From assembly GCF_037902255.1 (NCBI RefSeq), contig NZ_CP147990.1, forward strand, positions 630,001-662,000: a stretch of 32,000 nt of DNA. Reading direction: 5' to 3'. This document shows, piece by piece, positions 21,893-32,000 of this stretch. The notes under the pieces were generated by a model that had not been told where the DNA came from, ran no database searches, and worked only from the letters and a program-made list of their open reading frames with translations. The stretch is from Candidatus Electrothrix sp. GW3-4. Its GTDB lineage: Bacteria; Desulfobacterota; Desulfobulbia; Desulfobulbales; Desulfobulbaceae. The position numbers and the translations under genes were made by a program. Every line of letters begins with the position of its first letter. Positions within the stretch are counted from its first letter, which is position 1.

Positions 21893-21968
21893 GGGCGAAT
21901 AGCTCAGTTGGGAGAGCATCGGCCTTACAAGCCGAGGGTCACAGGTTCGAGCCCTGTTTCGCCCACCA
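21893..21968 (+). tRNA. tRNA-Val (anticodon UAC), CCA encoded
   Basis: Acceptor GGGCGAA/TTCGCCC, D arm GCTC-AGTTGGGA-GAGC, anticodon stem TCGGC/GCCGA with loop CTTACAA, T arm ACAGG-TTCGAGC-CCTGT. Confidence 0.95.
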
Positions 21969-21978
21969 AATTACTTAC

Positions 21979-22055
21979 GGGGTCGTAGTTCAGCTGGTTA
22001 GAATGCCGGCCTGTCACGCCGGAGGTCGCGAGTTCGAGTCTCGTCGGCCCCGCCA
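21979..22055 (+). tRNA. tRNA-Asp (anticodon GUC), CCA encoded
   Basis: Acceptor GGGGTCG/CGGCCCC (one G-U), anticodon stem CCGGC/GCCGG with loop CTGTCAC, T arm GCGAG-TTCGAGT-CTCGT. Confidence 0.95.
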
Positions 22056-22563: not shown

Positions 22564-22899
22564 TTACAAACCTAAACTTTTAATCATCTCACTGATATGA
22601 TTTTCTTTGATATCATTCTGTTTCGATTTTGCATAAACCGTTAATAGCAAGATCTCCTTGTCATTCAGGATGATATAATAAATCACTCTGAATCCGCCGC
22701 TTTTCCCTTTCTTCTGATCGGAAGAGGCTACACGGGCCTTGTAAACTTTGTTTTCAAAACCGGCAACAGCATCACCTATAAATTGACCGGATTCAAGCTG
22801 GTCCAGGAGAGGCAGGAAGTCTTCCCTGATATGCCGATACTTCTTTGCGAGTTTCTTGGTTTCCCTTGCAAAGGTGTCCGTAATTTTTACGCTGTACAT
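22564..22899 (-). CDS. Type II toxin, RelE/ParE superfamily (HigB/Gp49-like)
   Basis: 111 aa. The block YKARVASSDQKKGKSGGFRVIYYIILNDKEILLLTVYAKSKQNDI is the typical RelE/ParE-fold core. The start codon directly abuts the stop of the upstream antitoxin (TAAATG). Confidence 0.85.
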   Translation of the reverse strand: MYSVKITDTFARETKKLAKKYRHIREDFLPLLDQLESGQFIGDAVAGFENKVYKARVASSDQKKGKSGGFRVIYYIILNDKEILLLTVYAKSKQNDIKENHISEMIKSLGL

Positions 22900-23154
22900 T
22901 TACAGCTCTCTGTCGGAATCGGAAAGGAAGTCACGAGCGGAACAAAGCTCCTTTTTGCCGTCCTTATACGCCTTGACCTCTTTCAAAGCTTCAAATAAAG
23001 AGTCAATTGCGTTACCGGAACTTTCCCCTGTCCATCCTCCCAGCTTTTCCAATACATATTCTTTCATTGAAATCCCTTTAAGCAAAGCAGCCGCTTTGAT
23101 GGCGCGGTGCTGGGATTCGGGCAATTCAATAACGAGCCTTTTCATTCCGGGCAT
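22900..23154 (-). CDS. Ribbon-helix-helix (CopG/ParD-like) antitoxin
   Basis: MKRLVIELPESQHRAIKAAALLKGISMKEYVLEKL is an RHH beta-strand plus two helices. The C-terminal tail ALKEVKAYKDGKKEL is typical of toxin-wrapping segments. The ATG at 23154 is preceded by AAGGTG plus 6 nt; the track start at 23163 is a GTG. Confidence 0.8.
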   Translation of the reverse strand: MPGMKRLVIELPESQHRAIKAAALLKGISMKEYVLEKLGGWTGESSGNAIDSLFEALKEVKAYKDGKKELCSARDFLSDSDREL

Positions 23155-23233
23155 ATTAATCACCTTTGTATTTTTTGTGAATGTCGCAGGTAGCGCAGTG
23201 GAAAATCAGCTTCACAGGCTACACGCTACTTAT

Positions 23234-23825: not shown

Positions 23826-23878
23826 CAAATGACTATAAATCGCATGCCCCGAAGGGCAAAAAAACGATGAACTTTGTA

Positions 23879-24376
23879 TCACCGAACAGTGGGGTGTTGT
23901 ATTAGCTGTTCCTGGGTTAATTGCTCAATACTTCGAGAATCAAGTGGATGTTTTGAGGATAAAATTTGACCCGCGTAATCCTTTTCGTCTGAAGCGAACG
24001 CTTTCAAGAACACCTTGTAAGGATCACTTTTTGAACCGTCCTTTCTGAGAGTCTTTTCGTCATTCGTCCAGATATAACATATCAGCTTGCCTGTACCCTG
24101 AAATAAAAACAATAGCCGATATCGTCCAAGGTATTTTGCCCTGCGAAGTTGCTTCAGTTCTTTTTTAAGATAATATTGTCTTCTATTAGGGTTTTGCGGA
24201 ATGTCCGTCAAAATCAATCTGGTAATATGCTTCAGCCGTTTGTATTGTAAACTATTAGTGTAGTTTTCCGGGTCGTTTTTCTTTTGATTTTCAACGAGCT
24301 TTATCAAGTCCTCGAAAACTTTTTCAAACTCCTGATGCACATATAGTTGCCAGTCATTTACAACGTGAATCCCCAT
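23879..24376 (-). CDS. yhaV: YhaV-family toxin (type II TA ribonuclease family)
   Basis: VNDWQLYVHQEFEKVFEDLIKLVENQKKNDPENY, RAKYLGRYRLLFLF and ICYIWTNDEKTLRKDGSKSDPYKVFLKAF align block by block with E. coli YhaV as I recall it (NGWALYAHPCF..., DPENY, GRYRLFF, WMNDENTLRTYGKKTDAYTVFSKML). Confidence 0.8.
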   Translation of the reverse strand: MGIHVVNDWQLYVHQEFEKVFEDLIKLVENQKKNDPENYTNSLQYKRLKHITRLILTDIPQNPNRRQYYLKKELKQLRRAKYLGRYRLLFLFQGTGKLICYIWTNDEKTLRKDGSKSDPYKVFLKAFASDEKDYAGQILSSKHPLDSRSIEQLTQEQLIQHPTVR

Positions 24377-24395
24377 TTACCCCGTCGCCGCTTTA

Positions 24396-25268
24396 TTAGT
24401 TAAGAGCCTCTTGAGCCCTGTTGATTAAATCAACGTTCAAAGGAATCAAGTTACCCATCTCCACTTTTTTATCAATTTTTTCAAGCAGATCTTGGTATTC
24501 TGAATCGCGTGATTCAATTAAAATCTCGACAAAACCGTCTTCGATGCAATCAAGGTCTTGTGCCGTCAGTTGCTCGTTAATATCACACTCAAGGTCAATG
24601 ATTTCATCTTCTCGTAGATGAGCACAAAAGGTAAGCCTCCACCAGGATTCATCATCAATTTCTTCTTTGCTGACAGAATGTTTCACCCCTCGCATACCTT
24701 TTGAGCGCATTCTTTCGAACACTATATTCATCTTCAATTTAAAGCTATCCAGATCAAAACTACCGTCCTGTGATGCATCATAGATGGCTTGCAACCCTAC
24801 AAGGTTGGAGGAAATATGATTTTGACTTGACAGGAGCAACCCAGCGTGTTTTTGAAAAACCGAATGAGCCTCTTTTATGTAACCAGAAACTAAGGTTAGC
24901 GAAATAGCAGAGTGCAGATCTTTGAGCGCAGTTCGATCACTTTTTAGAAATGCCTCGTAGAATTTATCTGCGGCTTCTTTGACGAAAAGCATGTTCCACA
25001 GTGAAGCAGCGTAGTTTCCTATATAGAAAGCATCGCCCCCTGAATAAGCAATCGAATTCTTGTGACGACGGCGCATTTCGTTTTCATCGCCTTCGATAGA
25101 AGCGATGGCACCATAGATCATGTCACTGTCTGGAACAGATGCATTCCGAAGCTGCTGTGCATTTTGCTTAAATGATTGGAGCTGTATCAGGTTGACCTGA
25201 CCGCTCTCTGCAATTTTGGCAAGTGCTTCAACCAATTGCGTTGTTTTTTTCTCTGTTGCAAATTGCAT
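24396..25268 (-). CDS. Hypothetical 290-aa protein in the antitoxin position upstream of yhaV-like toxin (no recognisable family)
   Basis: A long uninterrupted ORF on the same strand, stopping 19 nt before the toxin ATG. It has protein-like composition and a highly acidic C-terminal third. I found no AbrB/PrlF, RHH, HTH or Phd motif. Confidence 0.7.
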   Translation of the reverse strand: MQFATEKKTTQLVEALAKIAESGQVNLIQLQSFKQNAQQLRNASVPDSDMIYGAIASIEGDENEMRRRHKNSIAYSGGDAFYIGNYAASLWNMLFVKEAADKFYEAFLKSDRTALKDLHSAISLTLVSGYIKEAHSVFQKHAGLLLSSQNHISSNLVGLQAIYDASQDGSFDLDSFKLKMNIVFERMRSKGMRGVKHSVSKEEIDDESWWRLTFCAHLREDEIIDLECDINEQLTAQDLDCIEDGFVEILIESRDSEYQDLLEKIDKKVEMGNLIPLNVDLINRAQEALN

Positions 25269-25325
25269 GGCGTAGTGTTGTCCTTTTTAAAGGGAGGTAG
25301 AATCAATCCGCATCTATAATCTATT

Positions 25326-25737
25326 TTATATATTTTTCAACTTAAATCCCACATTCAGCATACCCTCTATCCATTTCCAGAATATAATTTTTTCATATCT
25401 CCCACCCAACAGCTTCAGCAGACGCAAATGATGTTCATTTAAATTCAGGACCAGCTGTTGCATTCCGCCGACAAGCAGCAGGTGAATTCCTGAAAAAAAC
25501 TGAAATACCCAACGAGCAGTAGGGTTAGGGGCAGGTTTTCCTTTCTGGTTGGGAAATGTTTCATTATTTATTTCGAGCGCTTGTCTGATGCGATATTCCA
25601 ACGCGGCGTACACCAGGAGGCAAAGCGTCATAACCATCATCAGGGCCATGATACGTTTTCGGGATTTTAAAAAAAGCGTTGAAGCCATAAACATAGGATC
25701 TTTGAGGAAACGAAAACCCCGTTCAACCTTTTGCTGA
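25326..25737 (-). pseudogene. IS1634-family transposase, C-terminal piece
   Basis: Reads (QQ)KVERGFRFLKDPMFMASTLFLKSRKRIMALMMVMTLCLLVYAALEYRIRQAL...FPNQKGKPAPNPTARWVFQFF, the typical IS1634/IS4-type C-terminus. It is in frame with the N-terminal piece once 25738-27452 is removed. Confidence 0.85.
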
Positions 25738-25968
25738 GTAACCGTTCACCCCCCTCATTCCACACAAAAAAGAACTGGACAAAAAAGAGGATCACGATAG
25801 TTTAACGGTCACAACGTTTTTTACGAGATCTATCCACGTTCTGAGTATAATGGACCCCTATTCTTGGACAGCTATTTAAGGTAGATTTTTTTCTAAAAAT
25901 GCTGAATGTATTTTGGTGCGCTTGGCACGAGTCCGAAATTCATACAGCCACTACCGGAGAATCTACGC

Positions 25969-26247
25969 ATGTCACGTAAAAGAAGAGTCCACTCAGCTGC
26001 ATTTAAAGGAAAAGTTGCACTTGAAGCACTGAAAGAACTAAAGCCGATTAATGTACTGGCCTCCCAGTATGAGATTCAGCCAAACCAGATTAGCACCTGG
26101 AAAAAGCAGCTAAAAGAAGGAGTAACCGAAATATTCAGCCGAAAACGCGGTAAAGCAAAAGATGATTCCCGCAAGGCTGAAAAACGCTTATACGAAGAAA
26201 TCGGTCGTCTGAAAATGGAGCTGGACTGGCTTAAAAAAAAAGTCTGA
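25969..26247 (+). CDS. IS3-family transposase OrfA (HTH)
   Basis: MSRKRRVHSAAFKGKVALEALKELKPINVLASQYEIQPNQISTWKKQLKEG plus a leucine-zipper-like tail LYEEIGRLKMELDWLKKK. It ends in an A9 run. Confidence 0.85.
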   Translation: MSRKRRVHSAAFKGKVALEALKELKPINVLASQYEIQPNQISTWKKQLKEGVTEIFSRKRGKAKDDSRKAEKRLYEEIGRLKMELDWLKKKV

Positions 26248-27076
26248 GCCCTACTCGGATCCCCTTGATTTAATTGATTCTCAGCATAGGTCGATCAGCA
26301 TCCAGAGGCAATGTGAGCTGCTTGGCATCAGTCGATCCCGCTATTACTACAAGCCAGCGGTTGAGAGCGAACTGAACCTCAAATTGATGCGAATTATCGA
26401 TGAGATCTACACCGACTGTCCTTTTTACGGAAGCAGACGGATGGTCATCGAGCTGGAACGGCGTGCTTTTCATGTTAACAGAAAACGGGTTCAACGGTTG
26501 ATGCGCCTAATGGGGCTTGAGGCTATTTACCCGAAACCGAAACTAACTCATCGGAATATTGAACACAAAGTTTATCCATACCTTTTGAGGAACATCTTGA
26601 TTGATCGTCCCAATCAGGTTTGGAGCACTGATATCACGTATATTCCGATGCAGAGCGGTTTCATGTATCTGACGGTAATTATTGACTGGTACAGCCGATA
26701 CATCCTCAGTTGGCGTATATCCAATACGATGGATAACGATTTTTGTGTCGAAGCTCTTGATGAAGCATTAACTCATGGATTACCCGATATTTTTAATACA
26801 GATCAGGGAGTGCAATTCACAAGCAAGCAGTTTACACAACGCCTGACAGATGTTGATGTAAAAATCAGCATGGACGGCAAGGGCCGAGCACTGGATAATA
26901 TTTTTGTCGAGCGTCTTTGGCGTACAGTAAAGTACGAAAATATCTACCTGAAAGACTATCGAAATGGCAATGAGTTATACCACGGTCTGGAAGAGTATTT
27001 TTCGTTTTATAACACTCGACGTCCTCATCAGTCTTTGGGGTACAGATCTCCTGAAGATATTCATTATTGCTCATGA
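26240..27076 (+). CDS. IS3-family transposase OrfB (rve/DDE integrase core), expressed as OrfAB fusion
   Basis: SIQRQCELLGISRSRYYYKP, FYGSRRM, WSTDITYIP (D), FNTDQGVQFTS (D), MDGKGRALDNIFVERLWRTVKYE (E) and RPHQSLGY. The frame is open from 26213. The ATG-initiated ORF in the track starts only at 26384. Confidence 0.85.
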   Translation, partial: KSEPYSDPLDLIDSQHRSISIQRQCELLGISRSRYYYKPAVESELNLKLMRIIDEIYTDCPFYGSRRMVIELERRAFHVNRKRVQRLMRLMGLEAIYPKPKLTHRNIEHKVYPYLLRNILIDRPNQVWSTDITYIPMQSGFMYLTVIIDWYSRYILSWRISNTMDNDFCVEALDEALTHGLPDIFNTDQGVQFTSKQFTQRLTDVDVKISMDGKGRALDNIFVERLWRTVKYENIYLKDYRNGNELYHGLEEYFSFYNTRRPHQSLGYRSPEDIHYCS

Positions 27077-27188
27077 GATACAGTCAAACAAATATAGGAG
27101 GAAATCACCAGATAAGAGAGTTTGTTGTTAGCCCGAAATCTATCTTAAATTATGCTAAATTTTGTGTTGACTATGGGGTCCACTTTAG

Positions 27189-27416
27189 TGGCCCCTGACC
27201 AATAATGAGGCGGAGCAAGCGCTACGTCATTGGGTTATTGCGCGCAAATTAAGCCACGGTACCCGTAATGATCAAGGCAGTCGTGTGTTCGCCATACTTG
27301 CAAGTGTGATTGATACGTGTAGGAAGCGCAACGCCTGTCCGTGGAAATATCTCGCTGAGGTCATCACGGCTCGGCGCCAGGGTCTGGATGTGCCTCCTCT
27401 GCCTCTTGCTGCGTAA
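27189..27416 (+). pseudogene. IS66-family transposase (TnpC) C-terminal 75-aa fragment
   Basis: WPLTNNEAEQALRHWVIARKLSHGTRNDQGSRVFAILASVIDTCRKRNACPWKYLAEVI matches the conserved IS66 TnpC tail (TNNxAExxLRxxVxxRKxSxGTxSxxG...TC). The stop lies 28 nt before the IS66 right IR. Confidence 0.7.
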
Positions 27417-27444
27417 AAAAAATGAGAGAGGTCTGAACGGTTAC

Positions 27445-28726
27445 TTTGCTGATCTTTGTACACTTTCAAGAGTTCCTCGTCGGACAATTCTTCGCAGTCC
27501 AACTGATTCGTTGCAAGAATAAAACAGCTTTTTCGTTCCAACAATCGGGTTCTCTCCTGAAGCAGGGAGGCTGGGTTGCCTTCAATGCGGTAAACATAAA
27601 AGTCCGGTTTCTTGCCCTTGGCTGGCCGTCCTTTGCCCTTATGGCGAGGTAAAGCAACAACACGAGCGTCATGAATTGAGAGTATTTTCAGCTTTTTTTC
27701 AAAACGGGACAGTGCTTTCAATGCATCGGCCTCGCAGGCAAAATCCTGTTTGCACAACTTGTCGAATTGCTTGGACTCATTTCTGCTCAGCTTCAGACAT
27801 TTTTTGTTCACGGTCTTGCGTCCCCGTTGATATGCTTCAGGCGAATAGACAACCAACCAGCGCTGCCTGACATCGCCATAAACTACCCCGAGACTGCGAG
27901 ATGCTGCTTTTTCAGGATCCTGCATCAGATTTGAAGCTACTTCATGGATGATCTCCTGGGACAGATTCAATGTCTCCGGTACACGGGAAATCCACAATAT
28001 CATGCTCAGTTCTTTTAATGTTTGCGCTGTATAGAGCGCACTATCCGCAACCAGATATTCCAGGCTGAAATCGTTTTTCATCTGATCAATATGCGCTTGC
28101 ACTGTTTCCCGAAAATCTGTTTTATCGCTACTGTTACCACTTAACGGCTTCATCAGAAGCGGGATGCCAGCCTGTCGTTCGCAAATGAGCTGCAACACGA
28201 TCTGGTTCAGATCCGGACGATGATCACGGCTGTAGCCTTTTGTGATCCGAATAACACCTTCTTCCTCTTCTGATCCGTTGGCTGGATAGCGACCGTCGGT
28301 ATGAAAACTCGTTGAATCCAAGTGACCAAAACGTGCCAGCAGCCCTAGACGACCAATTGCCCTAGCTGCAAGCTGCGAATATAACTCTTCGGGATTATGC
28401 TCGTAAATCACTTCTAAGGCCCGGCCCAAAACAGTATCGTTCAGGTGCTGGGCCTCAATGCCTTCTCCGATGAGTCGATCTACCGGTTTATCCTGGAAAA
28501 AATGCGGGGTCAGATACAATGCCCGATTCGCAAAGCCCAACCCGTTAAGAACCATTGCCTTAACTGCCTGACCAACTGAGACAACTCGCTTTTCTTTATC
28601 CTGATGAATCAGACTGTCAATCAGCTCCCCAAGTCCGAGTTCGTCATACATACCCGCGACTAGGCCCAAGTGATTGAGGAGTTTACTTGAGCATTCCTGT
28701 GGTAAAATCGTTGTGTTGTTTTCCAT
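27445..28726 (-). pseudogene. IS1634-family transposase, N-terminal piece (427 aa)
   Basis: LNHLGLVAGMYDELGLGELIDSLI...VSVGQAVKAMVLNGLGFANRALYLTPHFF (DUF4277-type N-terminus) and HLDSTSFHTDG, up to ...LLKVYKDQQ. The last 57 aa of the 484-aa track ORF are read-through into the IS66 remnant. Confidence 0.85.
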
Positions 28727-28931: not shown

Positions 28932-30833
28932 TCACGAATCACCCTCAAAAGCGTGATCATTTCCCAGAGTAGAATAAATATTCATTAAACCCTGACTGTA
29001 TTCGTTATTACCGGATGTGGTAATAAGCAAATACTCCTGCGCCCTTGTCATGCCCACATACAGCAGACGAGCGGAATTCAGCCTGTGCTTTTCATCATCT
29101 TTCAACGCGCCGATTCCCATAATGATGACTCTTGAAAACTCAAGCCCTTTGCTGCTGTGGATCGTCGATAAGATCACCACATCGTCAGCAGGATTATAGG
29201 CCATCTTGCGTTTCTTCGAATTCATTAACAGGTGCGGTATCTGTTGCGTTTCCAATCGGGCCGCTAAGTCTTTGCCCTGATTTATCTTGCAGTACAGCAC
29301 CGCTATCTTGTTCCACGGCACCCCTCTTTGATGCCATGTTTCCAGGCACCGGGCCACATATGAAACTTCTTCGGAAAAATTAGCCTGCTGACAAACCACA
29401 GGGGGCAGCCCGAAAACACCGGCAGGTTCCGGCTGGATAAGCGGGATATGGTCGTCATCCGCATTTTGCGCGCTCAGGTAGTGCTCGGCAAACTTATAGG
29501 CAAATTCTAATATTTCGTGCGTGTTGCGATAATTCAGCCGTAAAATGGTTGTGCGCCCTTGCGCTTTCACGCCGACACTGGACAGGCTGAAATCAAGCCT
29601 GGAGCGGTTATCATAAATTGATTGGGCATCATCATAGAGCAGCAACAGAGAATTCGTTTCAGGGTCAACCATCTGGACAATAAGCTGAAGCCACTCTGCG
29701 GCGAAGTCATGCCCTTCATCGATAAGGATAGCACCATACTGTGCTCTGGGGATCAGGCCCTTATCTACAGAAGATATAACTGCCTCAACCTGTCGCTCAA
29801 AATAATTCCTGCATGGTTTCACCTCGACATGATATGTTTTCAGCTGCTGGCCGCACCAGTCGTGAAAATGATAGACCTGCACCTGGCCGCCTATGCCTTT
29901 GGCGGAAATAAAGGCCCTGATTTTTGCGGCTAAGGTAACATTGAAGCACAGAACCAGAATCGGTTTATCTGTCTCCTCTGTCAGATACTGGCACCGACAG
30001 CCCAGAATCATGGTTTTCCCTGATCCGGCGACCCCGTGAACCACCCTGTGCCCTTCACCGAGTCCCCGCGCCAACTTCTCCTGTTTAATATCCATGACCT
30101 TAACGAGGTCCTGAAAATCTTCGATAAACGGTGATGAGGTGTCTTTGTCAGGGCCGAAAAGTTCTTCTTCGGTGAATTGCTCATCAAGACGAATTTCCGG
30201 GAAAAGGTGCCAGCGGATACGGTCAATTTCCGGCATGGTCAGGGTACGGTTAAACCGATAGTGGAACATACCCCAAAGCTGTTCCTGAAATTTTTCCACA
30301 TCGGCACCCTCGTACATCTCATCCTTATAAATCATCAGGTGATCCGGCAGGAGGTTTTCGCGCCTGTCATCAGGTATCGCCTTTTCAACCTGCGTGCGGG
30401 TGATGTTTGTGAATACGCAGCCCCAGCCCCAGGTCATGATCGGCTTCCCCTGGTACTTTCCCTCTTTATTGCAGAGCATGGGATCGCGCTTGAGTTTATT
30501 TACGACCACGTATGTATAGTCGCGAGCCTGTTCTAAAGGATGCTGTACCTTCTGCAAGCCGGTATCAAGCAATAATTTAACGTATGAACTTGAAATAGTA
30601 CTTATGGTCGTCAGCTTCCAGTCCTTTATTTCAAGGCAGAGTATGCCACGGGACGGGTGAAGGATAATAAAGTCAGGGTAGCGTTGCTGCCTGCCTATGG
30701 GGATGTCGTACCAAATGGTATAGTCATCCTCAAGAAAGGTCTGTAATCGGCGCGCAAATCGAAGTTCTCCGGCAGTCATACGACTGATGGTTTGCGCATT
30801 AAGCGGCGGGATCATTTCTGCCATTATCGGCAT
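28932..30833 (-). CDS. NERD (PD-(D/E)xK-like nuclease-related) domain fused to SF1 UvrD/Rep-type helicase
   Basis: The N-terminus has RFARRLQTFLEDDYTIWYDIPIG...YPDFIILHPSRGILCLEIKDWK (NERD core D..E.K). Helicase motifs are GVAGSGKTMILG (I), ILIDEGHDF (II), LLLLYDDAQSIY (III), STIHSSKGLEFSRVII (V) and LLYVGMTRAQEYLLI (VI). Confidence 0.85.
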   Translation of the reverse strand: MPIMAEMIPPLNAQTISRMTAGELRFARRLQTFLEDDYTIWYDIPIGRQQRYPDFIILHPSRGILCLEIKDWKLTTISTISSSYVKLLLDTGLQKVQHPLEQARDYTYVVVNKLKRDPMLCNKEGKYQGKPIMTWGWGCVFTNITRTQVEKAIPDDRRENLLPDHLMIYKDEMYEGADVEKFQEQLWGMFHYRFNRTLTMPEIDRIRWHLFPEIRLDEQFTEEELFGPDKDTSSPFIEDFQDLVKVMDIKQEKLARGLGEGHRVVHGVAGSGKTMILGCRCQYLTEETDKPILVLCFNVTLAAKIRAFISAKGIGGQVQVYHFHDWCGQQLKTYHVEVKPCRNYFERQVEAVISSVDKGLIPRAQYGAILIDEGHDFAAEWLQLIVQMVDPETNSLLLLYDDAQSIYDNRSRLDFSLSSVGVKAQGRTTILRLNYRNTHEILEFAYKFAEHYLSAQNADDDHIPLIQPEPAGVFGLPPVVCQQANFSEEVSYVARCLETWHQRGVPWNKIAVLYCKINQGKDLAARLETQQIPHLLMNSKKRKMAYNPADDVVILSTIHSSKGLEFSRVIIMGIGALKDDEKHRLNSARLLYVGMTRAQEYLLITTSGNNEYSQGLMNIYSTLGNDHAFEGDS

Positions 30834-31096: not shown

Positions 31097-32000
31097 TTAC
31101 AGCAAAAGAAAAAGGACACTCGGAAGGAATCTCGATACGGCAGATAAGCGATGATGCATAATGAGGCCTTGGTCTCCCACGGCAAAAACATCATTATGAG
31201 TTCCCCATATCGCATAAATATAAGAGCTGTAGGGAAACGAAATCTGAATTCCTATATCCATCTTTTTCCATACTTCACCATCATAATGCAAAATTGTATT
31301 GAGTCCAACTGCAAAAACATCGGTGCTGCTCCTGCCCCAGACAGCATTAAGAGAAGGGCCAGACGCCATATGAGTCCATACTGTACCATCATAATGCAGG
31401 ATCGATCCCCAGCGTCCTACGACAAAAATATCATTACCGCTCGTACCCCAGATTCCTTCAAGATTTTCCTGCGTTCCTGATACCATTGCACTCCAACCTG
31501 TACCATCATAATGCAGGATTGTTCCCTCTTCACCCACCGCAAAAACATCATTGTCACCGGCCCCCCAGATTCCGTTAAGTCGATTGATGCTCCCCGACAA
31601 CATAGGAGTCCAAGTAGATCCGTCGTAATGTTGTATGATTGCCTGCTGAGGCATGTAGTCATATCCCACCGCAAAAACATTACTATCGCTGGAGCCCCAG
31701 ACACCATTAAGATATCCGTCAGTTCCTGATGTCATGGGATTCCAGGCAGTGCCATCATAATGCTCAATCGACCCTCTGTCACCTACCGCAAAAACATCGG
31801 TACCGCTGTTACCCCAGACAGCATTAAGAGAAGGACCAGATTTCATAGGAGTCCATGCTGTACCATCATAATGCATGATAGAATTGATGGTACCAAAGAA
31901 CCACGAATCCCAATATCCCACCGCAAAGACATCAGTAGCACTACTACCCCAAATACCATAAAGAGGATACTCTGTTCCTGATGCTGTCATAGGCGTCGCT
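31097..32000 (-). CDS. Beta-propeller-type repeat protein (5' end off-window)
   Basis: At least seven ~36-44-aa blades with the pattern (I/L)xHYDG(T/S)xWxxMxSG...LNG(I/V)WG.S..DVFAVG. The frame stays open upstream of the M at 31990 (…ATPMTASGTEYPLYGIWG fits the repeat), so the gene continues beyond 32000. Confidence 0.8.
   Translation of the reverse strand, partial: ATPMTASGTEYPLYGIWGSSATDVFAVGYWDSWFFGTINSIMHYDGTAWTPMKSGPSLNAVWGNSGTDVFAVGDRGSIEHYDGTAWNPMTSGTDGYLNGVWGSSDSNVFAVGYDYMPQQAIIQHYDGSTWTPMLSGSINRLNGIWGAGDNDVFAVGEEGTILHYDGTGWSAMVSGTQENLEGIWGTSGNDIFVVGRWGSILHYDGTVWTHMASGPSLNAVWGRSSTDVFAVGLNTILHYDGEVWKKMDIGIQISFPYSSYIYAIWGTHNDVFAVGDQGLIMHHRLSAVSRFLPSVLFLLL

Follow-up and report, generated by a model that had tools for sequence, protein, structure and literature searches.

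A YhaV-family toxin paired with a tetratricopeptide-repeat protein that bears a PrlF-type C-terminal segment: a candidate chimeric antitoxin in Candidatus Electrothrix sp. GW3-4

Two adjacent genes of the cable bacterium Candidatus Electrothrix sp. GW3-4 are considered here, one encoding a toxin of the YhaV family and the other, directly upstream of it, a 290-residue candidate antitoxin (hereafter, the partner) annotated as "hypothetical protein WGN25_03105" (identical product; P0001 in our set). Both lie in a stretch of 32,000 nucleotides (contig NZ_CP147990.1, positions 630,001 to 662,000), which was analysed as a whole and is called the window below. A preliminary description of the locus, made from the letters of the sequence, had pointed to the pair as a possible undescribed toxin-antitoxin (TA) or toxin-sensor system, and the two open reading frames (ORFs), their common strand and the 19-nt gap between them lie exactly where it placed them (Table 1). 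The spacer carries a G-rich run resembling a ribosome-binding site, and a weak terminator-like hairpin overlaps the end of the toxin gene, the latter from a consensus scan only, with hairpins no more numerous than in shuffled sequence. No plausible cryptic small antitoxin ORF of at least 20 aa was found between or overlapping the two genes, and an Rfam scan of the locus returned no RNA element.

Table 1. Features of the YhaV locus and its surroundings (positions are those of the window).
Feature	Position	Strand	Details
YhaV-family toxin gene	23879..24376	minus	165 aa; Pfam match = residues 11-127 (23996-24346)
Intergenic spacer	24377-24395	minus	19 nt, TAAAGCGGCGACGGGGTAA; G-rich, RBS-like run 3 nt before toxin ATG
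Partner (candidate antitoxin) gene	24396..25268	minus	290 aa; ~110 homologues; AlphaFold2 (AF2) model
Partner residues 1-167: N-terminal capping helices + TPR solenoid	24768..25268	minus	family profile, Foldseek
Partner residues 168-251: acidic alpha-beta-beta-alpha-beta domain	24516..24767	minus	AF2 models
Partner residues 252-290: PrlF-type C-terminal segment	24399..24515	minus	helices 256-270 and 279-289; HHalign, AF2
Weak terminator-like hairpin, then TTTTTTT	23865..23884	minus	starts in last toxin codons, overlaps stop codon
Gap, partner ATG to stop of IS1634-like transposase fragment	25269..25325	minus	57 nt
tRNA-Val and tRNA-Asp	21893-22055		start of low-GC stretch
Conventional TA pair	22564-23163	minus	ParD-type antitoxin (87 aa, PF09386, E 7e-11), then RelE/ParE-type toxin (111 aa)
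IS1634-like transposase, whole span	25326-28726	minus	in two parts
IS1634-like transposase, C-terminal fragment	25326-25694	minus	
IS1634-like transposase, N-terminal part	27272-28726	minus	DUF4277
IS3-family element, orfA	25906-26247	plus	HTH_Tnp_1
IS3-family element, orfB	26384-27076	plus	rve
NERD-UvrD protein	28932-30833	minus	633 aa; N-terminal NERD nuclease-related domain + UvrD-like helicase
297-aa ORF	31097-31990	minus	~40-residue repeats (…VFAVG……HYDGT.W..M.SG…)

By its sequence, the 165-aa protein is clearly an ordinary YhaV-family toxin of the RelE/ParE superfamily. It matches the Pfam model PF11663 (Toxin_YhaV) with an E value of 7.7e-31 (107.4 bits, cutoff 35), and YhaV of Escherichia coli K-12 aligns with it at 39% identity over 126 aa (E 3e-25), in keeping with the motif blocks on which the preliminary description had based the same assignment (WQLYVHQEF, DPENY, GRYRLLF and WTNDEKTLRKDGSKSDPYKVF), all of which are present. 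Among 24 YhaVs, 24 positions are at least 90% conserved, and the window toxin has all of them but two (W77L and F89L); the 22 that it keeps include R79, K81, R85, R87, W103, N105, D106, R111, D118 and Y120, and blocks such as RYRL, W-x-N-D-E-x-T-L-R and D-x-Y are preserved. Conserved arginines of YhaV have been reported as required for activity (PMC5408214), and reviews, including one of RelE/ParE proteins from 2025, describe YhaV as a RelE-superfamily mRNA endonuclease, with newer work placing cleavage at the ribosomal A site. The toxin is basic (pI 9.5) and matches no model of PADLOC-DB 2.0. A C-terminal extension of some 35 aa relative to the E. coli protein, suggested earlier, amounts to about 18 aa (40 residues beyond the last aligned position in the window toxin vs 22 in E. 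coli YhaV) and lies in a region that varies in all YhaVs, those of the related loci discussed below being 155-163 aa long. A word-indexed search with the toxin returned only a frameshifted copy of its own locus.

The partner belongs to a family that no model in Pfam, NCBIfam or PADLOC covers. At E<=1 these libraries gave no AbrB, RHH, HTH or Phd match to it, which bears out what had been concluded by eye, and neither Pfam, NCBIfam nor fold searches found any DNA-binding domain; its relatives likewise had no PADLOC matches. A PADLOC match of the partner to Cas7d (36 aa, 18.7 bits) was attributed to chance similarity within the acidic segment. The possibility that the partner was an orphan, raised by a word-indexed search that gave only the protein itself, was dropped once an exhaustive HMMER search (phmmer against 1.84 billion representatives) found 110 relatives at E<=1e-3. 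One of these, P0003, is a full-length relative with 39% identity, while most others are ~180-300 aa long and ~20-30% identical, with the N-terminal half best conserved and G53, N85, S89 and L90 nearly invariant across the family. Scans of metagenomes gave nothing for the subclade of the window partner and four short contigs for a class of ~200 aa; viral scans of IMG/VR gave the locus of P0043 only, and annotated phages and plasmids, searched by tblastn with family members, yielded no matches. Structural searching of BFVD found two full-length relatives of ~250 aa from uncultured siphoviruses (A0A8S5PNB2 and A0A8S5NZ34; E 1e-8 and 5.5e-7, TM 0.65-0.78), one of them auto-annotated as a "type 4 fimbrial biogenesis protein".

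The AF2 model of the partner (pLDDT 93.4, pTM 0.88, from a 108-sequence alignment) is largely helical, as had been anticipated, and divides into three parts. Judged from profile and model comparisons, the N-terminal half is a tetratricopeptide repeat (TPR) domain: the family profile matches TPR proteins of the PDB with E values from 3e-49 to 1e-10, and Foldseek against the PDB recognises this part alone, pairing it with the peptide-binding TPRs of KLC1, PilF, Pex5p, MalT domain III, Sgt2 and CHIP, several domains reaching a probability of 1.0, at E values no better than 5e-3 to 0.1. The middle part is modelled as a small alpha/beta domain (helix 173-189, strands 196-204 and 207-216, helix 220-236, strand 247-253), and a separate model of residues 167-290 has a pLDDT of 89. 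Its weak likeness to CDF-transporter C-terminal dimerisation domains and to OsmC (Foldseek E ~3e-3 to 1e-2) was not taken to assign a function, the matches being too weak. The partner as a whole has a pI of 4.9, complementary to the basic toxin. The strongly acidic composition that had been noted for the last ~70 residues is real (20 D/E vs 5 K/R, net charge -15, pI 4.05), whereas the idea of a free acidic tail is not borne out, much of the acidity residing in the folded domain of residues 168-251 (residues 166-255 have a net charge of -12). The likely toxin-binding element is the final pair of helices rather than the acidic region as a whole.

What connects these last residues with YhaV emerges from a comparison with 20 YhaV loci of named genomes (from Acidobacteriota, Gemmatimonadota, Cyanobacteria, Pseudomonas, Photobacterium and others), found by scanning genome contigs for the toxin. 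None of the 20 has a TPR partner, the gene upstream in nearly all of them encoding a protein of 72-157 aa. Three of these canonical antitoxins were scanned in Pfam: two are PrlF_antitoxin (PF15937, E ~1e-13) and a short one stays below threshold at 25 bits, with matches at model positions 44-99. The canonical YhaV-linked antitoxins have in common a C-terminal motif, DPV..FL.FL..D....P..i.PL......Ri..L..Gv.V, which E. coli PrlF also bears, while the N-termini that precede it differ and are of the AbrB/MazE type, of a "TGNS" variant, or short and unclassified. The motif recurs in YhaV-linked antitoxins built of TPR alone or of TPR plus alpha/beta domain, and this PrlF-type segment is the sole part common to every YhaV-linked antitoxin examined.

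A hidden Markov model (HMM) of the PrlF C-terminal motif matches the TPR family at extreme C-termini only and always collinearly, with E values of 1e-5 for P0099, 5e-5 for P0081, 6e-4 for P0043 and 8e-4 for P0021. Aligned with HHalign, the last 42 residues of 15 long members (the window partner among them) match the C-termini of 18 canonical antitoxins with 95.9% probability (P 5e-9; score 40.4 over 43 columns), whereas the controls stay lower (13.3 for the reversed tails, at most 14.4 in 100 shuffles of the columns); the three-member subgroup of the window partner, taken alone, still reaches 71% (P 3.6e-5). The aligned stretch maps to window residues 252-289, ESRDSEYQDLLEKIDKKVEMGNLIPLNVDLINRAQEAL. 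On this sequence evidence the last ~38 residues of the partner and the YhaV-specific segment at the C-terminus of PrlF are homologous. The rest of PrlF has no counterpart: the whole partner has no PF15937 match at E<=1 (the nearest approach in the family is P0099, at 15 bits and E 0.029 against a cutoff of 32), and residues 1-167, where PrlF has its AbrB/MazE swapped-hairpin domain, are TPR and gave no MazE or AbrB match. The preliminary remark that the partner fits no known partner family thus stands for the first ~250 residues and fails for the last ~38; a profile match to a described antitoxin family exists for the tail alone, and no cryptic DNA-binding domain came to light. Given the lack of a whole-protein PF15937 match and of an AbrB domain, together with the presence of the C-terminal segment and the genomic position, the partner should be described as a PrlF-tail chimera and not as a PrlF.

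Gene context, read for 11 family members and sorted by architecture, associates the tail with YhaV. Members built of TPR, alpha/beta domain and PrlF tail (~290 aa: the window partner, P0003, P0041, P0050 and P0043) and one of TPR and PrlF tail without the alpha/beta domain (~200 aa: P0081) all have YhaV downstream, so that every tail-bearing homologue with readable context shows the pairing whose conservation the preliminary description had proposed to survey. The PF11663 gene follows directly in six of six such loci (window, L005, L003, L004, L009 and L030), at spacings that range between an overlap of 1 nt and a gap of 19 nt; these members are 17-39% identical to the window partner. Three members with TPR and alpha/beta domain and without the tail (~250 aa: P0007, P0015 and P0006) instead precede, in three cases of three, an overlapping gene for a HEPN protein of ~128 aa, a split of YhaV and HEPN by tail for which we calculate a Fisher exact p of ~0.012. 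The same module is reused with other tails and other toxins: P0065 (186 aa), TPR with a "...H.ELW..L" tail, precedes a 131-aa Fic/Doc protein in 10 contigs (six places shown); P0056 (300 aa), TPR and alpha/beta domain with a different tail, precedes a TumE-like toxin; and the member at L042, TPR with a "...LSYEEVFGG" tail, precedes a weakly ParE-like protein (E 0.0055). Around the pairs, no further gene recurs from locus to locus. In a neighbour-joining tree, rough and without support values, the TPR-linked YhaVs fall at several positions among the PrlF-linked ones, consistent with repeated exchange of modules.

Several of these relatives sit in distinctive surroundings. The P0043/YhaV pair lies in a viral contig (L009 5001-6351 / L038; IMG/VR UViG 3300032277_002987, 39 kb), between the genes for the large terminase (GpA) and the portal protein and after a gene with a pRha domain, as moron-like cargo in a head-morphogenesis cluster. 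The tail-less P0006 and its HEPN gene (L008 1-6153) are directly downstream of a CBASS-like operon with an E1/E2/JAB fusion and a patatin effector. P0056 and its TumE-like toxin (L037 2914-4254), the latter matching the PADLOC candidate system component PDC-M44B, sit within a type I-B CRISPR-Cas locus, with cas1-cas2 and a gene for a SEC-C-motif protein on one side and cas6b-cas8-cas7 on the other. In L031-L036 (4001-4932), P0065 overlaps its Fic/Doc gene, with an integrase and a UvrD helicase as neighbours.

We therefore consider it probable that the window pair is a two-gene type II TA operon, composed of a YhaV toxin and a chimeric antitoxin in which a PrlF-type tail is carried by a TPR scaffold; the antitoxin slot envisaged in the preliminary description remains the best reading of the upstream gene, though its overall interpretation is supported only in part. 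By analogy with E. coli YhaV, the toxin would be a RelE/ParE-fold endoribonuclease that cleaves mRNA on the ribosome, and the 290-aa protein would be its antitoxin. The two-helix tail of the last ~38 residues would bind and neutralise the toxin, a role suggested by comparison of sequences, since the tail is the only element common to all YhaV-linked antitoxins. Where PrlF has an AbrB/MazE-type domain for DNA binding and dimerisation, this antitoxin would have the TPR solenoid and the small acidic alpha-beta-beta-alpha-beta domain instead, and, with no DNA-binding domain found, it is probable that it does not regulate its own operon through operator binding. The TPR/alpha-beta module most likely serves as a scaffold, possibly a dimerising one, and as a protein- or peptide-binding input, which may govern the timing of toxin capture and release by the tail.

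Several points weigh against this interpretation. Compared singly with the PrlF C-terminal HMM, the window tail gets no further than E~1, the significance coming from the profiles, and the acidic DEDLGD-type ending found in most canonical PrlFs is missing from it. The tail helices, whose pLDDT in monomer models is fairly high (75-90), may for that reason be docked on the body of the protein and not free. The HEPN-linked relatives have no tail, so that the module must have another mode of action as well. Lastly, expression of the window copy is uncertain, and its transcription may depend on read-through, in view of the insertion sequence (IS) fragment 57 nt upstream, the lack of a promoter-like site and a toxin-frameshift allele in a sibling sample, which are taken up below.

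A further reading builds on the chimeric antitoxin proposed here and does not exclude it. A sensor role for the TPR module is plausible from the conservation of N85, the several toxin outputs and the mobile and defence contexts; N85 is presumably a groove-facing asparagine, by our own reading of the TPR consensus. Taken further, and as a tentative possibility, the TPR module (with or without the alpha/beta domain) may be a hyperpromiscuous ligand-binding input domain that defines a new class of sensor antitoxins: its ligand would be a protein, for instance one from a phage or one made under stress, the exchangeable tails (or direct action, with HEPN) would couple that ligand to the release of at least four unrelated families of toxins (YhaV, HEPN, Fic/Doc and TumE-like), and ligand control would have replaced transcriptional autoregulation. 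Comparably speculative is the proposal that the pair is primarily an anti-phage or inter-element conflict system and not an addiction module, and would act in sensor-type abortive infection, with the TPR groove recognising a phage or stress protein and YhaV being freed by ligand binding or by ligand-dependent proteolysis. Consistent with it, TPR domains of the type matched by Foldseek bind peptides, N85 is nearly invariant in a protein that has no DNA-binding domain, one input module is joined to four or five toxin outputs, the contexts comprise a CBASS-like neighbour, a CRISPR locus, a phage head-gene cluster and an island with a NERD-UvrD gene, and two structural relatives occur in uncultured siphoviruses. 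Yet PADLOC has no model for the partner, the evidence from context is anecdotal, with one locus of each kind, and the TPR domain could equally be a passive scaffold.

The window pair itself lies in a stretch of low GC, 0.40-0.47 from about 22 kb onward vs ~0.50-0.56 upstream, which begins directly after the genes for tRNA-Val and tRNA-Asp and fits an island inserted at tRNA genes, a typical integration-island setting. A conventional ParD/RelE-ParE pair directly adjoins the tRNA genes, and the stretch also holds an IS1634-like transposase, in two parts because an IS3-family element has inserted into it on the opposite strand, and a NERD-UvrD helicase gene, of a type common in defence islands. 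Terminal inverted repeats that would mark the IS boundary upstream of the operon were looked for and not found. Towards the end of the window, the repeats of a 297-aa ORF give it the look of a beta-propeller, with no significant match to a Pfam family.

This setting bears on an alternative that concerns the window copy alone, namely that, whatever the family does elsewhere, it is a remnant, silent or in decay, within an island crowded with IS elements, which we consider unlikely. In its favour, the IS1634-like fragment, itself a product of the IS3 insertion, ends 57 nt upstream of the partner, and no sigma-70-like promoter was detected in the gap between them. Moreover, the same locus as assembled from the sibling run SRR28154590 (L001 compared with L002) shows a single difference in 1663 nt, an inserted A (AATGAC[A]GAAAAG) at window ~24058-24059 on the minus strand, in toxin codons N105-D106-E107; the resulting frameshift truncates the toxin at the W-x-N-D-E motif, leaving 117 aa, and may reflect either an error of assembly or a genuine toxin-null allele in the population. 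Against decay, neither ORF of the window pair is disrupted, 22 of the 24 conserved toxin positions are kept and the partner folds in AF2 with a pLDDT of 93; the transposase gene, which is co-oriented, could provide transcription by read-through, and a toxin-null allele would be expected if the toxin were active and costly. Improbable above all is that the 290-aa protein is an accessory factor (a chaperone, protease adaptor or localisation factor) and not the neutraliser, the toxin being weak or otherwise controlled: TPR proteins are often co-chaperones or adaptors, as the matches to Sgt2, CHIP and Hop-like TPRs recall, and the HEPN-linked relatives have no identifiable toxin-binding tail, but the locus offers neither another ORF of at least 20 aa suited as antitoxin nor an Rfam RNA element, the PrlF-type tail is present precisely in the YhaV-linked members, and the genes are tightly coupled, from 1-nt overlap to 19-nt gap.

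Returning to the chimeric antitoxin, its closest known counterpart is PrlF-YhaV of E. coli (PF15937/PF11663), with which the window pair shares the toxin family, the antitoxin-then-toxin order, the tight spacing and a homologous C-terminal antitoxin segment; it differs in having ~250 residues of TPR and alpha/beta domain in place of the AbrB/MazE swapped-hairpin domain, in escaping detection by PF15937 and in lacking the acidic DEDLGD-type end. Modular type II antitoxins likewise combine a common N-terminal module with a swappable, toxin-specific neutralising segment at the C-terminus, but their N-terminal module is DNA-binding (AbrB, RHH, HTH or Phd), whereas that of the window partner is a protein-binding repeat domain. 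The association of one antitoxin-side module with many unrelated toxin families recalls Panacea (PanA, DUF4065; PMC8832971, and NetFlax, PMC10440598). The likeness is in promiscuity only: the TPR fold is unrelated, the partner has no DUF4065 match, and toxin specificity in the TPR family appears to lie in exchangeable C-terminal tails and not in the common domain. The LA2681 HEPN family (PMC3710099), compared by its description only, has a small HEPN protein encoded beside a TPR protein, an arrangement that resembles the tail-less branch, but such TPR proteins were not linked in that census to YhaV or to PrlF-type tails.

In the literature cited here, YhaV is described only with AbrB-type PrlF: the 2025 RelE/ParE review and the main text of the NetFlax survey (PMC10440598) give no alternative partner and describe no TPR partner for YhaV, and the main texts of the Panacea (PMC8832971) and NetFlax papers mention neither YhaV nor TPR. 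The TPR module is apparently an undescribed, promiscuous antitoxin platform, which pairs with YhaV, HEPN, Fic/Doc and TumE-like proteins and possibly with ParE-like ones.

For the YhaV family, the comparison suggests that the ~40-residue PrlF tail may be a portable YhaV-neutralising cassette that has been grafted onto a TPR platform, and so may indicate where in PrlF the recognition of YhaV lies. The antitoxin scaffold family is new to Pfam, NCBIfam and PADLOC, with the consequence that finders of TA and defence systems miss such pairs or call the toxin an orphan. The pair would also offer a tractable system in which to study the regulation of an antitoxin that lacks a DNA-binding domain, and to ask if antitoxins of the TPR type detect phage proteins.

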